DNA of 42,509 nucleotides. It comes from a virus. The notes beneath the pieces are model-generated. The model did no database searches. It had not been told where the DNA came from and was given only the letters and a program-made list of their open reading frames with translations. The stretch is taken from the IMG/VR virus record IMGVR_UViG_3300010939_000103; one strand, given 5' to 3'. The position numbers and the translations under genes are program-made. Of the stretch, positions 1 to 42,509 are shown piece after piece (the stretch's first letter is position 1; the number at the start of each line of letters is the position of its first letter).

Positions 1-105
1 ACGTCCTCAGCGCCAAGGCCCAACTCGACGATACCGTAGAACTGGAGGTGACCTACATAGGTGACCGCTCAGACATCCCAGAGTCCAAGGTCAACTGTCC
101 TGACT
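1..105. repeat. Direct terminal repeat, left copy (identical to 42405..42509)
   Basis: The first 105 nt (acgtcctcagcgcc...caactgtcctgact) recur exactly as the last 105 nt of the window. Confidence 0.97.
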
Positions 106-1039: not shown

Positions 1040-1068
1040 TTGACAAGCACACAACTTTATGGTATAAT
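1040..1068 (+). promoter_or_regulatory. Consensus sigma70 promoter P1 (TTGACA-17-TATAAT, extended -10 TGg)
   Basis: TTGACA is at 1040-1045, followed by a 17-nt spacer and TATAAT at 1063-1068, with TGG immediately before the -10. An 8-bp inverted repeat CTGGTGAC/GTCACCAG (1008-1015 / 1029-1036) abuts the -35. Confidence 0.75.
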
Positions 1069-2088: not shown

Positions 2089-4010
2089 TGACCACCCCAA
2101 CAAGCCTCACTGAACCCCTGTCCCATAACTGGAGGATAAATACCTCCGACATACCAGCCATAGAACTGGCCAATGCCCTGCGTGGACTTGCTAAGGTGGT
2201 TGGAATACTGGACAAGGACACCAAAGATGTGGTCTTTTCCACATCGTCCTTCAACTCCCATAAGCACGGCATAGTGGCTATAGACGCGGCCTATGCCCTA
2301 AAGAAACAGCCAATATCAGTAGCGGATTTTGATGTCCTCACAGGGCTAGCCGTCCACGAGGCTGGTCATACGGTAATTGATTCCCATAGAGTTGCCCACA
2401 CCGGGGACCTCGATAAGCAAGGCATTAACGTCAGCGACGACGAGATAACCATAGCCCACGTTTCCGCTGTTGGCGAGGATATCTATAACGACAACTATAT
2501 CCGTCGCCACCACCCAGTACCCTTCCGTTACATTCAACGAGCCCGGAGGGCCTACGGTGCCGACCAAAAGGACATCAACTGGGCTCGCTCCATGATAGCT
2601 TGGACCGCAACCGTGCTCTACGGCAAGCTACCTTACGATAAGACACCACCTCGCGTTATGCAAGCCCTGGCCATCCTTATGACCTATACATCAGACCTTT
2701 CATCCAGGGACATACGACCGGTATCAAGGGAGGTCATATACCAGCGAATCTACAATGACCTAAAGCCCCTGATAGAAGGAGAGCAAATCCGTAAGAAGCT
2801 ATCCTCCAAAGGTGCAGAGGTAGGCGACGAGCACAAGGAAACTTGGGAGGACAATCTTCAAGCGGATAACGCTGAGCAGGAGGTCTTTGACAGGCCAGAA
2901 GTTAAAGCCAACGAGCCGCCGGAGAAGGAGAATGCTGAGGAAGATGCTAGTGAACCTACCGCTGAAGGTCCTGATGGTGAGGGTTCTGGGATTCCGTCTA
3001 ATGAAGCTCCTCCCGAGGGGCCTAAGGGCAAAACTACACCTTCGGAAAACCCAGCAGGAGATGCAGACGATGCTGAGGAAGATGAGTTAGGCGATTCGGA
3101 GGAGGGAGAACAGGATGATAAGGACGTGGAAGCTGAACCACCTAGAGGAGTAGAACTTCTCAACTCTACCCATACCCCCATCGACAAGAAACTCCGCAAG
3201 GCCATCAAGGAAGCCTACGAAAGTGATGCCGAGGATATGACCCAGGACATACAGGATATCCTCGAGGAGTACGAAGTAGATAAGTCAGGGCTTCAAGAAC
3301 GCCTAGGCAAAGGTAGTCTCTCGGTAGTTTGGAGCCGGCCTAACCGCAAACCTAACTCTGCCTTCGACCCTAATCTCTATAGGCAGTTGGTTTGGGTCCA
3401 GCAAATCCGCAATACCCTAGGCAAGGAAATTTACCGCGCAGAACCTCAGGGCAGGGTGGATGCCCACCGCCTCTACCGCGCTCCCATAGACGGCAACGCT
3501 TTCAAGGTAACTAGACGAAAGCCTCGAAAGGACTTGGACCTCGTACTGCTACTTGATGCCTCAGGCTCCATGAACAGCGACGCTAACTCCATCTACGAAG
3601 CCGCGAGAGCCCTCTATAAAGCCCTACCCATGGCCAACGTGGTAACCTACAGTGCAATGGGCTCCAACGTTGACCTACAGCACGTGGCTCGTAAGGGTGA
3701 ACCCTTCAAGTCATTTGAATGTAACGGTGGTACTCCATCTGGGATGGCTCTACTAGCCACGGCCAAGATGTTCCCTAAGAGCCTCATTATCCACTTCACT
3801 GATGGCGGCAGCAACACCGACCTAAGACCCTCCGATGCCTTCCCCATCATCGCCAGGGAATTCCCAGAGGTCCAGATAGTGGATATTGTGCAGAGAGGCG
3901 CACGTGTGGAAAGCACATCGCCCAACGTAAGTAGGGTAAACATTACCTCACCCAACGAGTTTCCGGAGGTTTTGAAGAAGGCCTTGCGTCCCTGGTACCA
4001 AGCGGCATAA
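2088..4010 (+). CDS. HExxH (zincin-like) N-domain + acidic linker + C-terminal vWA domain protein (CobT / DUF2201-like partner of the AAA+ ATPase)
   Basis: 640 aa. The start overlaps the upstream stop (TAATG). The N-terminal part carries AVHEAGHTV. A long Asp/Glu/Pro-rich low-complexity stretch follows. The MIDAS motif reads LLLDASGSMNS, with downstream GGTPSG and FTDGGSN. Confidence 0.85.
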   Translation: MTTPTSLTEPLSHNWRINTSDIPAIELANALRGLAKVVGILDKDTKDVVFSTSSFNSHKHGIVAIDAAYALKKQPISVADFDVLTGLAVHEAGHTVIDSHRVAHTGDLDKQGINVSDDEITIAHVSAVGEDIYNDNYIRRHHPVPFRYIQRARRAYGADQKDINWARSMIAWTATVLYGKLPYDKTPPRVMQALAILMTYTSDLSSRDIRPVSREVIYQRIYNDLKPLIEGEQIRKKLSSKGAEVGDEHKETWEDNLQADNAEQEVFDRPEVKANEPPEKENAEEDASEPTAEGPDGEGSGIPSNEAPPEGPKGKTTPSENPAGDADDAEEDELGDSEEGEQDDKDVEAEPPRGVELLNSTHTPIDKKLRKAIKEAYESDAEDMTQDIQDILEEYEVDKSGLQERLGKGSLSVVWSRPNRKPNSAFDPNLYRQLVWVQQIRNTLGKEIYRAEPQGRVDAHRLYRAPIDGNAFKVTRRKPRKDLDLVLLLDASGSMNSDANSIYEAARALYKALPMANVVTYSAMGSNVDLQHVARKGEPFKSFECNGGTPSGMALLATAKMFPKSLIIHFTDGGSNTDLRPSDAFPIIAREFPEVQIVDIVQRGARVESTSPNVSRVNITSPNEFPEVLKKALRPWYQAA

Positions 4011-4028: not shown

Positions 4029-4781
4029 ATGCGCATCTTTTCGCTCCAGGACCTCTTGATATGGAAACCCGCCCCAGTCAAGCAAGTTATAGGTAGTGGG
4101 GTCCTCCTAGCCCAGACCAAGCTGGTAATCTTTGGGGCTCCTAAAACTATGAAGAGCCTCATTGCCCAGCAACTAGCCTTCTGCCTCGGCACAGGCTCCC
4201 CATGGCTCGGCTTCTCCACGGAAATGTCCCGTATCCTCTACGTACAAGGTGAGATTAGCCAGATACCTTTCCGCGGCAGAGTAGTCCAAATGAGCCGTAA
4301 CGCCACCCTGCCCCCCAACGCCCTGCACTTCGCCACAGAGTTTGGACTAAAGCTCGACCGAGACTCTGGAATGGACGAACTTAAGAAGGGGCTTGATTCC
4401 ATAGCACGTAGGTACAAGGCCCCTATAGAAGTGCTAATGGTAGACCCGCTCTATAAGTTCGTCTCAGATTCCAGTGAAAGCTCCATACAGAGGATGGTTG
4501 ATAACCTTGATATCCTACTGGATAGAGAGAACATCACCCTAGTCATGGTCCACCACTCCCGCAAAGCCCAACTCACAAGCTCAGGGGCTGTGGTTGATAT
4601 GGGCGGTGCAGAGTTGAGAGGCCCCCTTATCGAACAATGGGCTGACTCCATCATAAGGGTGAGAGGCGATATAAGCAGTGACCATAGGGTTCTTGACTTT
4701 GAACTCCGCAACGCCACCTCACTCCTTAATCCCATAAACATAGAACTGGACCGCAAGCGTCTTTGGTTCAACACAGTATAG
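4029..4781 (+). CDS. RecA-fold ATPase (AAA_25 / RepA-DnaB-C-terminal-like), probable replicative helicase or loader
   Basis: Walker A is GAPKTMKS, Walker B is IEVLMVDPLY, and LVMVHHSRK follows. Confidence 0.75.
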   Translation: MRIFSLQDLLIWKPAPVKQVIGSGVLLAQTKLVIFGAPKTMKSLIAQQLAFCLGTGSPWLGFSTEMSRILYVQGEISQIPFRGRVVQMSRNATLPPNALHFATEFGLKLDRDSGMDELKKGLDSIARRYKAPIEVLMVDPLYKFVSDSSESSIQRMVDNLDILLDRENITLVMVHHSRKAQLTSSGAVVDMGGAELRGPLIEQWADSIIRVRGDISSDHRVLDFELRNATSLLNPINIELDRKRLWFNTV

Positions 4782-4798
4782 GATAATGCACCTAACTC

Positions 4799-4827
4799 TT
4801 GACAAGCACTTCCCTCTGTGCTATAAT
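4799..4827 (+). promoter_or_regulatory. Consensus sigma70 promoter P2 (TTGACA-17-TATAAT)
   Basis: TTGACA is at 4799-4804 and TATAAT at 4822-4827. It shares the 11-mer TTGACAAGCAC with P1, and TGC precedes the -10. Confidence 0.75.
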
Positions 4828-35466: not shown

Positions 35467-36141
35467 CTAAATCGTAGCACTTTCGCCACTGGCAAACCTT
35501 CTAGCGCGTTCAACAATGTCAACCTGGGCCTCCGGCACTTCCCTACCAACTGAGTACCCATGGTAGGCTTCCTCGTAGCCATGTTCCCCGAAGAGGCGTT
35601 CAGGAACAGCTTGAGGCACTTCCTGTTCATTGGTAGCTTGCTCCTCTGGAACATCCACTACGGTACCTGTGGACTGGATAGGGGCAGGGAAGTTATCGCG
35701 GAAGTCATAAAGCTTAATTACGTGCTCCTCTACTTTATGTATCCGCTTGTTCTCCGCCAAGACGCCCTGGAGCTTGGCTATATCCTCACTAGCGCGCAAC
35801 GCAGAGGTTAGTAGCTGAGGAACCTGCTGTGGTCTCTGCTCCATAGTCCTGTAGGCGGTATCTATGACGTGGCGGAATCTGCCTACAGCCTCCGCGGCGA
35901 GTGCCTGGACCTCATCATCCTGAAAGACGTGTAGTATACGCCTTCCCGCTTGCACGTCCTCATAGACCTGTTCCCAGGGAAGCCCAAATTCCTCGCAAAT
36001 GGCGCTTACTGACTTCCCAGCGGTCCACAGCGTGATTACAGCCAATTGGCGGCTGCGATTAGTGTCCGAGAGCCGCAGAGCAGCCTCCTTGGCTCTCTCC
36101 ATGGCCTTTTCTGATATTCCGCTACCTGCAATCGTAGTCAT
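35467..36141 (-). CDS. Terminase small subunit (by position; N-terminal HTH-like)
   Basis: 224-aa ORF immediately upstream of terL. It contains LAVITLWTAGKSVSAICEEFGLPWEQVYEDV. Confidence 0.6.
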   Translation of the reverse strand: MTTIAGSGISEKAMERAKEAALRLSDTNRSRQLAVITLWTAGKSVSAICEEFGLPWEQVYEDVQAGRRILHVFQDDEVQALAAEAVGRFRHVIDTAYRTMEQRPQQVPQLLTSALRASEDIAKLQGVLAENKRIHKVEEHVIKLYDFRDNFPAPIQSTGTVVDVPEEQATNEQEVPQAVPERLFGEHGYEEAYHGYSVGREVPEAQVDIVERARRFASGESATI

Positions 36142-36171
36142 CGTTTGTACAGAGAACCCTTATTACGCCGT

Positions 36172-36390
36172 CTACCTCTTATGGTAGTCCATGACCATGA
36201 GGCATGTAGGACAAGATAGCACCTTGTCGCTTAATCCTCGAAACTCGGACACTTGGTTTTGGGAAGTAACTGTGACCTGTATCTTACAGGCCATCAAGAG
36301 GAAAGGCTCTCCGGAGGTCAAGGTCCCGGATGACTCAGTTAAATGAGCCTTTTCTTCGCCGGGCCAGTTTACCCAGGGCTCAGTTTCCAT
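36172..36390 (-). CDS. Doubtful leader ORF (72 aa)
   Basis: The ORF lies between the structured leader and terS. No SD precedes the ATG at 36390. The C-terminal part carries C...CPTC. Confidence 0.25.
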   Translation of the reverse strand: METEPWVNWPGEEKAHLTESSGTLTSGEPFLLMACKIQVTVTSQNQVSEFRGLSDKVLSCPTCLMVMDYHKR

Positions 36391-36410
36391 ATTAGACCTG
36401 AGCTTAGGTA

Positions 36411-36539
36411 GGGAGGGATGGAACCCCGATTACAGGTCTGCCATCCACACGGGACGGGGAGGTTGAGACGCGGTCCACAGCGCGCAGCAGGCTTTCCCGG
36501 CTAGGCACCTTTTGAGCACCATCACAACCATCCCTCCCC
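36411..36539. repeat. Structured element A: 11-bp perfect long-range helix enclosing 106 nt
   Basis: GGGAGGGATGG (36411-36421) is the exact reverse complement of CCATCCCTCCC (36528-36538). A competing local partner CCATCC lies at 36441-36446. Four motifs are shared in order with element B. Confidence 0.5.
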
Positions 36540-36592
36540 AAGCTGAGTGGCGACTTCTACGGAGTAGGGGCCGCCATCGCCACCGCCTCCCT

Positions 36593-36621
36593 ATTATCGC
36601 ACGTCAAAACTCTGGAGTCAA
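36593..36621 (-). promoter_or_regulatory. Candidate promoter of the virion (late) operon: TTGACT-17-GATAAT with extended -10 TGc
   Basis: The reverse complement of 36586-36625 reads tagTTGACTccagagttttgacgTGcGATAATagg. It is the only good sigma70-like match seen on the - strand upstream of terS. Confidence 0.55.
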
Positions 36622-36731
36622 CTACCGGCACTAAAATCGGCGCTAATCCAGCTTACATGCAGTAAGGTAGCATTGCGAGGTCGAGGCGCTTTTCATGGCG
36701 GGAAGTCGTGTTGGAGGTAAGGGGATTTGAT

Positions 36732-36747
36732 TGTGACAGCTTTCACT
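36732..36747. promoter_or_regulatory. Operator-like dyad GATTGTGA-N6-TCACT
   Basis: The sequence gATTGTGAcagcttTCACt shares GATTGTGA-N6-TCAC with the site at 37808-37825. Confidence 0.4.
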
Positions 36748-36822
36748 AGAACGCCCCGGGTAGCCTAAGTAGAACATATGTTCGCAGGAAAGTAGCACAG
36801 ATGGCCTAAGGGCCTTTACCAC

Positions 36823-36844
36823 ATCTTTATCATATCTTTATCAT
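36823..36844. repeat. Perfect tandem duplication of ATCTTTATCAT (2 x 11 nt) abutting the P3 -35
   Basis: The two copies occupy 36823-36833 and 36834-36844. TTGACA starts at 36851. Confidence 0.9.
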
Positions 36845-36850
36845 TGCCTA

Positions 36851-36879
36851 TTGACATTGACCCAAGGACGTGGTACAAT
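36851..36879 (+). promoter_or_regulatory. Sigma70 promoter P3 (TTGACA-17-TACAAT, extended -10 TGg)
   Basis: TTGACA is at 36851-36856 and TACAAT at 36874-36879, preceded by TGG. The RBS AAGGAGGG and the ATG at 36945 lie downstream. Confidence 0.7.
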
Positions 36880-36944
36880 GACCACACGCGAAAAGAGCGA
36901 GGCAAGCGCCTAAGCATCGCGCAGAACCTAAGGAGGGTTGAGCC

Positions 36945-37562
36945 ATGGTTACAGAGACTGCCCAAGGGTTGAAGGACAAGCTGGAAAACCTAAGGGCTGC
37001 AATCACACAGGCACTGGCGGCGGGGGAGAATGCAGACGCAGTGATGGTGGAGTACACCGCCCTGCTATCCAAGTACCAGACAGCGCAGAGGTCGGAGAAT
37101 GCCGTCGCCATCGACGAGGCCAAGAGCCAAGTCCTGCGCGGCATCGGGGGCCTCATCGATGGGTCTGGGCTTGAGACGCTGATGGGCGAGTCGGTGGTCG
37201 CCATCAACTGGTCCAAAACCGTTGAGGCGGGCAAGGAACCGGTTTTCGCACTCAACGTCAACAGCAAGCGTGGCCGCGCGAGTGGTAGCGCGACTGGCCG
37301 CAACGGCGGTGGTCGCAGCACTAAGCACTTTGAGGTCAATGGCAAGGTGATGGATGCACGCGAGTTCGTGCTCGCCCATGCCCCCGAGGACATCCTCGAT
37401 GCCTCACTGGTGAAGCGCGGCGAGGGCAAGTGGATTACCAAGCCAATCCACATCGACAAGACCGTTGAGCACCTGAAGGGTCAGGGCGTCACAGTCAACG
37501 AGGTGGCAGCGCCAGCCGCGACGCCACCGGCCGAGAAGCCGAAGGTGACAGCGACCAAGTAA
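36945..37562 (+). CDS. GC-rich early protein: N-terminal helical/coiled-coil region, Gly/Arg/Ser linker, small C-terminal domain
   Basis: 205 aa with AAGGAGGG upstream. Codons are visibly GC3-rich, which produces long antisense shadow ORFs. The linker reads SKRGRASGSATGRNGGGRS. Confidence 0.75.
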   Translation: MVTETAQGLKDKLENLRAAITQALAAGENADAVMVEYTALLSKYQTAQRSENAVAIDEAKSQVLRGIGGLIDGSGLETLMGESVVAINWSKTVEAGKEPVFALNVNSKRGRASGSATGRNGGGRSTKHFEVNGKVMDAREFVLAHAPEDILDASLVKRGEGKWITKPIHIDKTVEHLKGQGVTVNEVAAPAATPPAEKPKVTATK

Positions 37563-37576
37563 TTGGCGAAACGCGG

Positions 37577-37602
37577 GGCAGGGGAAACTTGCCACCCCTG
37601 CC
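37577..37602 (+). terminator. GC-rich hairpin after the early gene (weak U-tract)
   Basis: GGCAGGGG (37577-37584) pairs with CCCCTGCC (37595-37602) around a 10-nt loop. It is followed by tcgtgtct, not a clean T-run. Confidence 0.4.
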
Positions 37603-37612
37603 TCGTGTCTGC

Positions 37613-37733
37613 GAGGGATGAGCGCCTCGCACTGATGAGCCAGCTCACGGAGGGTGCGATGGAATAACGCGGAACGGTAACCTCGGAGGTTGAGGCCGAG
37701 CCGCACCACAACCCACATAGAGCAACCATCCCT
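37613..37733. repeat. Structured element B, related to element A
   Basis: AGGGATG (37614-37620) pairs with CATCCCT (37727-37733), enclosing 106 nt. It shares GAGGGATG, GGAGGTTGAG, GCACCA(t)CACAACC and CAACCATCCCT with A in the same order. Confidence 0.45.
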
Positions 37734-38048: not shown

Positions 38049-38077
38049 TTGACAAAACAGTTATTTTGTGGTATAAT
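38049..38077 (+). promoter_or_regulatory. Consensus sigma70 promoter P4 (TTGACA-17-TATAAT, extended -10 TGg)
   Basis: TTGACA is at 38049-38054 and TATAAT at 38072-38077, preceded by TGG. Confidence 0.75.
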
Positions 38078-42395: not shown

Positions 42396-42509
42396 TGCAA
42401 GGCTACGTCCTCAGCGCCAAGGCCCAACTCGACGATACCGTAGAACTGGAGGTGACCTACATAGGTGACCGCTCAGACATCCCAGAGTCCAAGGTCAACT
42501 GTCCTGACT
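42395..42509 (+). CDS. 5' part of the wrap-around zinc-ribbon ORF (continues at 3..212)
   Basis: The ATG at 42395 is preceded by GGCGGAGGTTG. The reading frame runs through the terminal repeat. Confidence 0.6.
   Translation, partial: MQGYVLSAKAQLDDTVELEVTYIGDRSDIPESKVNCPD
42405..42509. repeat. Direct terminal repeat, right copy (identical to 1..105)
   Basis: It matches 1..105 exactly over all 105 nt. Confidence 0.97.

Follow-up and report, generated by a model that had tools for sequence, protein, structure and literature searches.

The phage genome and its divergent region

The window, i.e., the whole 42,509-nt stretch of DNA that we analyzed (IMG/VR record IMGVR_UViG_3300010939_000103), is a complete phage genome, a circular assembly with a 105-bp terminal direct repeat and 42,404 unique bp. 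Its genes form two arms, separated by an 800-nt divergent region (36142-36944) within which the leader under study is located. The + strand arm, from 36945, holds replication and nucleotide-metabolism genes, with products including an AAA_25 helicase-like protein, AAA_24, a family A DNA polymerase, a methylase, MazG, a dCMP deaminase, and MoxR/VWA proteins. The other arm lies on the - strand, between 36141 and ~15348, and holds the virion genes together with those for the terS candidate, TerL (Terminase_3), and a Mu-type portal. We recognized no gene for an integrase, a sigma factor or an RNA polymerase in this genome. The terS candidate has weak HTH_28/HTH_7 matches and a match to phrog_645, with the TerL and portal genes directly downstream, and homologues with 25-38% identity are located upstream of TerL in related phages. 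The virion operon headed by the leader, orf72-terS-terL-portal, is ~21 kb long. An earlier note on this DNA had described a candidate late promoter followed by a structured leader, and every feature that it listed there was found where it had been placed (Table 1).

Table 1. Features of the leader and adjoining genes (positions in the window)
Feature	Position	Strand	Remarks
Sigma-70-type promoter-like site	36593..36621	-	TTGACT, 17-nt spacer, TG-n-GATAAT; predicted start near 36586
7-bp hairpin GUGGCGA/UCGCCAC	36547..36583 (36583-77/36553-47)	-	23-nt loop; between promoter and motif
Complete structured RNA motif, ~130 nt	36409..36540	-	P1, inserted hairpin, J1/2, P2, P3, pseudoknot, J2/1
P1 5' strand UGGGGAGGGAUGG	36528..36540	-	pairs with 36421-36409, 13 bp, one G.U
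Insertion between P1 and J1/2, 28 nt	36500..36527	-	lineage-specific; possible 6-bp hairpin GGUGCU/GGUGCC
J1/2 block CGGGAAA	36493..36499	-	CGGG (36499-36496) is the PK1 5' strand
P2 5' strand GCCUGC	36487..36492	-	pairs with GCAGAC 36441-36436, one C.A mismatch
P3 variable hairpin GCGCG-CUGUGGAC-CGCGU	36468..36485	-	inside the P2 loop
Central conserved block C-CCGUCCCGUG	36448..36458	-	CCCG (36458-36455) is the PK1 3' strand
P2 3' strand GCAGAC	36436..36441	-	partner of GCCUGC
J2/1 block CUGUAAUCGGGGUU	36422..36435	-	contains GUAAUCGGGG
P1 3' strand CCAUCCCUCCCUA	36409..36421	-	partner of 36540-28
72-aa ORF (orf72)	36172..36390	-	AUG 18 nt after P1
terS candidate	35467..36141	-	N-terminal HTH; first recognizable virion-operon gene

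The promoter proposed in the earlier note, TTGACT-17-GATAAT with an extended -10 TG, is present and scores 10/12; no other - strand match in the divergent region is as good, the runner-up (9/12) being located at 36857..36829. Genome-wide, eight sites score at least 10/12, four of them being perfect (12/12), and each of the eight is oriented with the arm that contains it (4/4 in the + arm and 4/4 in the - arm). This co-orientation makes chance matches unlikely and argues for real promoters, and also argues that the phage relies on a host sigma-70-type RNA polymerase. It is plausible that the predicted promoter at 36621..36593 is real. An analogous 10/12 site is located ~70 nt upstream of the copy of the RNA motif, described below, that we identified in L154, a Logan phage contig with a TerL that is 52% identical to that of the window; in both phages a 10/12 promoter thus lies 50-70 nt upstream of the motif, with unrelated hairpins in between. 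The 7-bp hairpin at this place in the window exists as it had been described, but its pair probability is only 0.25, it is not conserved among family members, and it falls outside the conserved family structure.

The poorly initiated 72-aa ORF of the earlier note, orf72, is likewise present and has no SD. Gene callers predict orf72, and its AUG occupies the site where family members normally start the first gene; this AUG lies inside a predicted hairpin, and the codon score of the ORF (-0.06) is ambiguous. We identified no homologues of orf72 among 1.84 billion representative proteins, Pfam and PHROG searches were without a match, and the similarity to an upstream ORF in the L009 locus was not significant. 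orf72 could be a real small gene under regulation, or no more than a leader ORF. Two further candidates in this region were rejected: a 30-aa ORF behind a GGGAGGG SD-like sequence, which looks non-coding by its codon score of -0.48, and a tRNA or tmRNA, for which ARAGORN gave a negative result on the window and, in member loci, at the motif.

A conserved, covarying RNA motif in the leader

Three other public contigs with the same terS are 100% identical to the window across the whole leader, and therefore offer no variation to analyze. A k-mer search for terS homologues identified none, and comparison of the leader with 131 TerL-related loci by blastn and nhmmer returned nothing. The IMG/VR loci with weak terS and p205 homologues contain a non-coding gap of 600-800 nt from the first early gene to terS; these loci show that the long gap at this position is a conserved layout, and that the gap sequences do not align. 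A 49-nt stretch of the equivalent region of L154 is 84% identical to window positions 36459-36413, and the alignment contains a 1-nt indel, which excludes conservation of a protein-coding sequence. The L154 motif is found in the same place as in the window, between the divergent region and terS, and in both phages one or two small ORFs separate the motif from terS downstream. Scanning with a pattern that combines two conserved blocks, CCGTCCCGTG-N12-24-GTAATCGGGG, yielded 4 viral and 25 genome stretches, with ~20 true members; ~16 of the 25 genome stretches resemble the motif well beyond the search pattern.

The elements of the motif occur in the order P1, an optional hairpin, CGGNAAA, P2 (6-7 bp), P3, a pyrimidine-rich linker, N'CCGUCCCGUG, P2', YGUAAUCGGGG, and P1'. 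Using alignment A3 (11 sequences, MAFFT, window excluded), we observe that 99% of the P1/P2 cells are paired, that compensatory changes are present in 19 of 19 pairs, and that the covariation score is 0.97, compared with 0.26 in shuffles (0 of 500 reach 0.97) and 0.06-0.16 in slid controls. Compensatory pairs make up 12/12 of P1 in A3 and 10/11 in alignment A5, and 7/7 of P2, with the P1 counts being biased because P1 was found via a complementarity search, whereas P2 and PK1 were not so selected. There are 14 G.U cells and only 2 non-pairs in A3, which demonstrates that the selected molecule is an RNA of - strand sense. The two bases that covary in PK1, the fourth of CGGN and the base just before CCGUCCCGUG, form GC in 12, UA in three, CG in one and UG in one of 17 sequences, and are unpaired in none, which supports a predicted 4-bp pseudoknot (PK1, CGGN:N'CCG). 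A second pseudoknot, UCCCG:CGGGG, was rejected as unsupported: its sequence is invariant apart from two variants (L185 and L196), neither of which is compensated.

The junctions contain ~27 near-invariant nucleotides (CGGNAAA, CCGUCCCGUG and GUAAUCGGGG), with the 20 nucleotides of the pattern having been imposed by the search, so that their invariance rests on two relaxed scans. When the CCGUCCCGUG block was left free, it was exact in 5 of the 6 true members found, and when the J2/1 block was left free, GUAAUCGGGG was exact in 6 of 7 true members; since almost every true member kept the freed block in these scans, the invariance is not purely a product of the search pattern. CGG.AAA is invariant in alignments A3 and A5. 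At the P3 site, most members contain a hairpin, and the sequences of these hairpins are unrelated.

A covariance model (CM R1) built from 11 other members, i.e., without the window, gave a single match on the window, at 36499..36422 (-), with 42.2 bits and E 5.7e-8. In the window, all three conserved blocks are exact, and PK1 is CGGG:CCCG. The P1 3' strand begins 2 nt (UU) after GGGG, the family register being 2-3 nt after GUAAUCGGGG, and the position of the P2 mismatch is also mismatched in L154. The 28-nt insertion after the P1 5' strand is likewise present in L154 and L178; the hairpin at this site is weak alone in the window (-5.8 kcal/mol, z = -0.97) and clearer in L154 and L178 (z = -4.1 and -5.1). 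Comparison of the window with L154 shows compensatory differences in P1, P2 and P3 and every conserved nucleotide kept, demonstrating that the motif is selected in phages too. A 13-nt direct repeat, CGCTGTGGACCGC, is present once in the P3 loop and again in terS. Four GGGAGG motifs are present, head-to-head, within 181 bp, a cluster for which P1 and the pyrimidine linker account.

Our analysis of the individual leader helices both confirmed and corrected the picture drawn in the earlier note. The 11-bp perfect inverted repeat (36411-21/36528-38), which that note had read as a helix closing a domain, is part of the 13-bp stem P1 (one G.U pair) of the conserved, covarying RNA. Non-palindromic inverted repeats of at least 11 bp within 150 nt occur three times in this genome, so that the repeat alone is within chance, and it is the covariation of the family that validates the helix: as the note had suggested examining in homologous leaders, both P1 and P2 covary. 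The local pairing GGAUGG/CCAUCC, proposed as mutually exclusive with this helix, is thermodynamically competitive (pair probability 0.59 vs 0.19 for the 11-bp helix), and both competing leader folds were reproduced (-81.9 vs -79.9 kcal/mol), but the alternative is specific to the window sequence and is not conserved; L174, for example, contains the same GGAUGG, but with a non-complementary P1 3' strand, UGGCUACCCCC. No intrinsic terminator-like site is present in 36142-36621 on either strand, which leaves classical attenuation without a visible platform, and the attenuator reading of the earlier note finds neither a G+C-rich hairpin with a U tract in the leader nor a conserved competing pairing. 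The description of the leader as highly structured was also overstated. The demonstrable structure accounts for ~130 nt of the ~445 nt, with orf72 in the remainder. Folding of the whole leader gives z = -2.69 on the - strand vs -0.97 on the + strand, and the best 150-nt folding window (36401-36550, - strand) has z = -2.98, i.e., in about the top 3% genome-wide; thermodynamic stability at this level is too weak as a sole argument and was discarded as such. Our analysis shows that the RNA at 36540..36409 is real, that it is selected on the - strand, and that it is in a 5'-leader position.

Distribution and genomic setting of the family

Members of the family are mostly from Dehalococcoidia/Dehalococcoidales MAGs, with the others located in four viral contigs and in phage L154, and one MAG (CSMAG_1256) contains three copies of the motif. 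CM R1 had 0 matches in the TerL-related phage loci, of which 870 kb and then another 56 kb were searched; this absence from the other TerL relatives (L004-L153 and L197-L201) means that the motif is not essential to this phage group. A search of Rfam 15 with positions 35900-37100 of the window identified nothing relevant at E<=10, and neither did searches with 19 member loci at the gathering score, nor with 5 member loci at E<=5; the search with RNA-family covariance models that the earlier note had proposed thus assigns the leader to no Rfam 15 family. Literature searches by taxon, motif type and conserved strings found no description of such a motif. The motif family is therefore conserved, absent from Rfam 15, and present mainly in Dehalococcoidia (Chloroflexota) and in a few phages.

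The taxonomic spread of the motif points to Dehalococcoidia or Chloroflexota as the probable host of this phage. Several other characteristics fit such a host, but do not prove it: matches to TerL occur in Chloroflexota MAGs, the phage carries strong GGAGG SDs with extended -10 promoters, and the divergent region contains a near-perfect Gram-positive-type LexA box.

We analyzed the regions immediately upstream and downstream of the motif in its members. In several members, strong sigma-70 promoters end 4-14 nt before P1, with scores of 12/12 in L159 and L166 and of 10/12 in L158 and L164, and for 13 of 19 members the distance from P1 to an SD and start codon is 0-21 nt. This arrangement is that of a 5' leader acting in cis, and it resembles a translation-controlling riboswitch most closely. 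The genes downstream of the members are heterogeneous, and encode IS1595 transposases, Lrp/AsnC ligand-binding-domain proteins, an MBL hydrolase, TRAP and ABC solute-binding proteins, a LAGLIDADG protein, an AAA ATPase, a C92 peptidase, and DUF7508; two phage copies precede terS operons. Among the neighbors of the members we found no set of genes coherent in pathway or transport that would point to a ligand, and no signaling genes (GGDEF, EAL or similar) among the neighbors examined. The P1 3' strand and the pyrimidine linker are no more complementary to the SD than shuffles are (p = 0.28 and 0.39), i.e., an anti-SD role was not detected for either. A different arrangement is seen in L166, where the order of promoter, motif, U6, second perfect promoter and gene resembles that of a stand-alone RNA.

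Proposed function and alternative explanations

The presence of a conserved, covarying domain closed by the 11-bp helix makes the riboswitch-like late-operon element suggested in the earlier note a reasonable reading, although the attenuation logic attached to it there is unsupported. We consider it fairly probable, from the arrangement and conservation of the sequence, that the motif is a sensor-type, riboswitch-like cis-regulatory leader acting on the orf72-terS-terL-portal operon. Under this proposal, the predicted sigma-70-type promoter at 36621..36593 would transcribe the pseudoknotted domain as the 5' leader of the operon, the leader would bind a small molecule, or a host or phage factor, and its folding state would set the expression of the genes immediately downstream. 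The packaging/late operon would thereby be tied to a host signal that is also used by Dehalococcoidia genes and mobile elements. We infer that the element would control late gene expression in this way.

Among known systems, the SAM-II, preQ1-II and c-di-GMP-II aptamers resemble the motif in being compact 5'-leader domains (~95 nt) with a closing P1 and an internal stem, in having a junction-loop pseudoknot, an A-rich junction strand and conserved junction nucleotides, and in the location of the SD near the 3' side of P1. The motif differs from these aptamers in that it has no Rfam 15 similarity, no coherent gene association, and no recognizable expression platform. Second-messenger riboswitches also precede heterogeneous gene sets, and the motif is like them in its heterogeneous downstream genes and in the proposed use by the phage of a host-type RNA sensor; it is unlike them in sequence and fold, and in the lack of signaling genes among the neighbors examined. 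Several observations count against a riboswitch-like reading. The diverse downstream genes suggest no ligand, which is unusual for a metabolite riboswitch, searches for a terminator or for SD sequestration found no expression platform, and the copy in the window is followed by no SD and by an ORF without homologues. The L166 copy, with its resemblance to a stand-alone RNA, likewise departs from the usual riboswitch layout.

A first alternative is that a protein or RNA polymerase binds to the motif, which would then be, for example, an HK022 put-like antitermination RNA or the site of an autoregulatory or global RNA-binding protein, and not a small-molecule sensor. The motif is promoter-proximal and heads a ~21-kb operon in two phages, and the heterogeneity of the downstream genes suits a general factor better than a metabolite. 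The lambda late leader (PR'-qut-6S RNA-tR') and HK022 put are similar promoter-proximal elements that head a long terminase-containing late operon, a likeness by which the motif could gate the whole operon. These systems, however, need downstream terminators together with Q or a modification of RNA polymerase, and they are confined to phages, whereas there is no terminator in the leader of the window and most members precede single host genes with an SD 0-21 nt away, where terminator read-through meets no obvious need. No candidate protein co-occurs with the motif. Between a site of this kind and ligand sensing the computation draws no distinction; we regard the former as unlikely.

We also regard as unlikely, to a similar degree, that the motif represents a new self-cleaving ribozyme class, or that it is another kind of RNA-processing element, by which the late transcript would have its 5' end trimmed or separated. 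Small self-cleaving ribozymes (hammerhead, twister, pistol, hatchet) occur close together in phage and mobile DNA, and new classes have turned up near known ones. The motif resembles these ribozymes in its small size, its pseudoknot and its invariant core of ~27 near-invariant junction nucleotides, and in its scattered, mobile-element-rich contexts (IS1595, LAGLIDADG, phages), and a type II hammerhead is located 1 kb away in the same phage. The motif differs from them in that it matches none of the covariance models of known ribozymes, its sequence does not point to a cleavage site, and its fixed place between promoter and SD is typical of leaders and not of bacterial self-cleaving ribozymes.

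The L166 locus, with a second perfect promoter between motif and gene, and the several copies present in some genomes (three in CSMAG_1256) would suit a stand-alone, trans-acting small RNA whose placement ahead of genes is incidental. We consider this improbable, given that an SD and start codon follow P1 by no more than 21 nt, with no intervening terminator, in 13 of 19 members, and that no terminator follows the motif in the window.

Very little probability attaches to a DNA-level element, such as a pac site, a terminase-binding site, an operator, or a cruciform formed by the G-rich/C-rich inverted repeats beside terS. Packaging sites are often near terS, e.g., SPP1 pacL/pacR, and the head-to-head GGGAGG motifs and the direct repeat shared by the motif and terS could be read in this way. 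The GGGAGG cluster is, however, accounted for by P1 and the pyrimidine linker, the stems covary with their sequence otherwise free, G.U is tolerated on one strand only, and the family precedes non-phage genes in bacterial chromosomes; the last two of these points make such a role unlikely. Least probable of all, and by our estimate close to dismissed, is that nothing special is present here, i.e., an ordinary untranslated gap and a small real gene, orf72, with helices by chance, for which the 11-bp inverted repeat being within genome-wide chance expectation, the modest z-scores and the gene-caller predictions could be cited, against the match of CM R1, built without the window, at E 6e-8, the strong family covariation, and the conservation of the L154 motif in the same place.

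Returning to the sensor-type leader that we favor, a more far-reaching form of the proposal is that Dehalococcoidia, their insertion sequences and their phages have in common a new class of riboswitch, with the motif as its aptamer, or a new class of ribozyme, and that the phage uses it to couple its packaging/virion operon to an intracellular signal of the host. We advance this only tentatively. If it is true, the late-gene switch of this phage would be a host-type RNA sensor, and not a protein activator or antiterminator. Structured leaders with such covariation and an invariant core usually prove to be riboswitches, ribozymes or protein-binding regulators, and new classes of structured leader tend to expose an overlooked signal or chemistry. 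The Dehalococcoidia, in which this motif is common to mobile elements and phages, are poorly studied and mostly uncultured. The motif gives a likely host, Dehalococcoidia, for an otherwise unplaced phage, and it provides a testable handle on late-gene timing in a phage with no recognizable late activator, sigma factor or RNA polymerase.

Putative regulatory sites along the two arms

In the divergent region between the terS and early arms, our analysis identified a sequence that closely resembles the LexA (Cheo) box of Gram-positive bacteria and lies approximately 150 nt 5′ of the - strand promoter. The genome contains just two perfect GAAC-N4-GTTC sites, of which this is one. Distant relatives carry arrays of 2-6 related sites, of the form (G/T)ACAT-N-TGTTCTA, at the equivalent region. 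Such sites may serve as operators, bound either by the host's LexA or by a phage repressor that is conserved.

We also identified five perfect or near-perfect sigma-70 consensus promoters in the window, most with an extended -10 TG, and every one of these is co-oriented with its own arm. The promoter at 1040 falls within the 5′ end of the ORF at 1027-2088, and the true start of this gene is therefore probably further downstream. On the early arm, the first gene spans 36945-37562, and a type II hammerhead ribozyme begins 2 nt past its stop codon, at 37564; the 3′ end of the ribozyme adjoins the Shine-Dalgarno sequence (37649-37653) of the next gene. A scan of related loci did not detect it there.

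Sequence features of the window and of related loci
Feature	Location	Strand	Basis
Type II hammerhead ribozyme (RF02276)	window 37564-37649	+	40 bits vs gathering score 37, E 7.7e-5
Sigma-70 promoter	window 1040-1068		consensus match, 12/12 or 11/12
Sigma-70 promoter	window 4799-4827		consensus match, 12/12 or 11/12
Sigma-70 promoter	window 38049-38077	+	12/12 or 11/12
Sigma-70 promoter	window 36851-36879	+	12/12 or 11/12
Sigma-70 promoter	window 22291-22263	-	12/12 or 11/12
LexA-like box CGAACATATGTTCT	window 36771-36784		13/14 identity to CGAACATATGTTCG
Arrays of LexA-like related sites	L006 ~4253-4296; L009 ~840-1090; L016 ~3870-3930		
Perfect 13-nt direct repeat CGCTGTGGACCGC	window 36470-36482 and 36020-36032	-	

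The leader motif and the divergent position in other genomes

Several genomes contain members of the pseudoknotted leader RNA family found ahead of terS in the window. For example, in a Gemmataceae MAG (L168, ~4040-4260, -), the motif is present inside an additional 15-bp outer helix, GGCUGGCGUGGUCGG/CCGACCACGUUGGCU, with a T-arm-like GCGGGGTTCGATCCCCC located 3′ of it, and ARAGORN detected no tRNA or tmRNA in this motif region. A second member (L166, ~3250-3340, -) has its own perfect promoter and is followed by UUUUUU, after which a second perfect promoter, TTGACA-17-TATAAT, is located ahead of the downstream gene; this arrangement suggests that L166 transcribes its motif as a stand-alone RNA. 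Three orthologous loci from Dehalococcoidales (L175, L185 and L196) have a strong Shine-Dalgarno sequence and a very short ORF directly after the motif, and the start of an ABC solute-binding-protein gene comes just ~90 nt further on. This layout may add control by a leader peptide. ARAGORN also reported a "tRNA-Stop" with anticodon UUA in a Dehalococcoidia MAG (L170, 2739-2814, -), adjoining a tRNA-Leu(UAA) and approximately 1 kb from the motif; one possibility is a suppressor tRNA carried on mobile or phage DNA.

Every relative shows linkage between the p205 homologue and terS, and in L152 (2514-3991) this homologue is inverted and lies on the same strand as terS. At the corresponding divergent position, L197 (2418-3441) and L200 (1984-2986) have non-coding gaps of ~1 kb; the motif is absent from both loci, and the gaps may hold other elements. 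Separately, in the prophage region of a Bacillota MAG (L084, 8815-9091, +), the TerL homologue has a tandem array of three skipping-rope RNAs (RF02924; 44-58 bits) on its downstream side.

A repeat shared with terS, and the contig ends

One copy of the 13-nt direct repeat makes up the loop of hairpin P3 in the window's RNA motif, with the other located within the terS coding region; we estimate the chance expectation for such repeats at ~0.01 in this 1.2-kb region. Allowing up to two mismatches, the window contains 5 matches to CGCTGTGGACCGC vs 0.77 expected, a count that no shuffle reached. Candidate roles for this repeat are recognition by terminase or as pac, or contact between RNA and a protein.

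An exact direct repeat of 105 bp is present at the two ends of the window (1-105 = 42405-42509), and the contig therefore closes into a 42,404-bp circle. This terminal repeat fits either a circularly permuted (headful) genome or the joining of cos ends.
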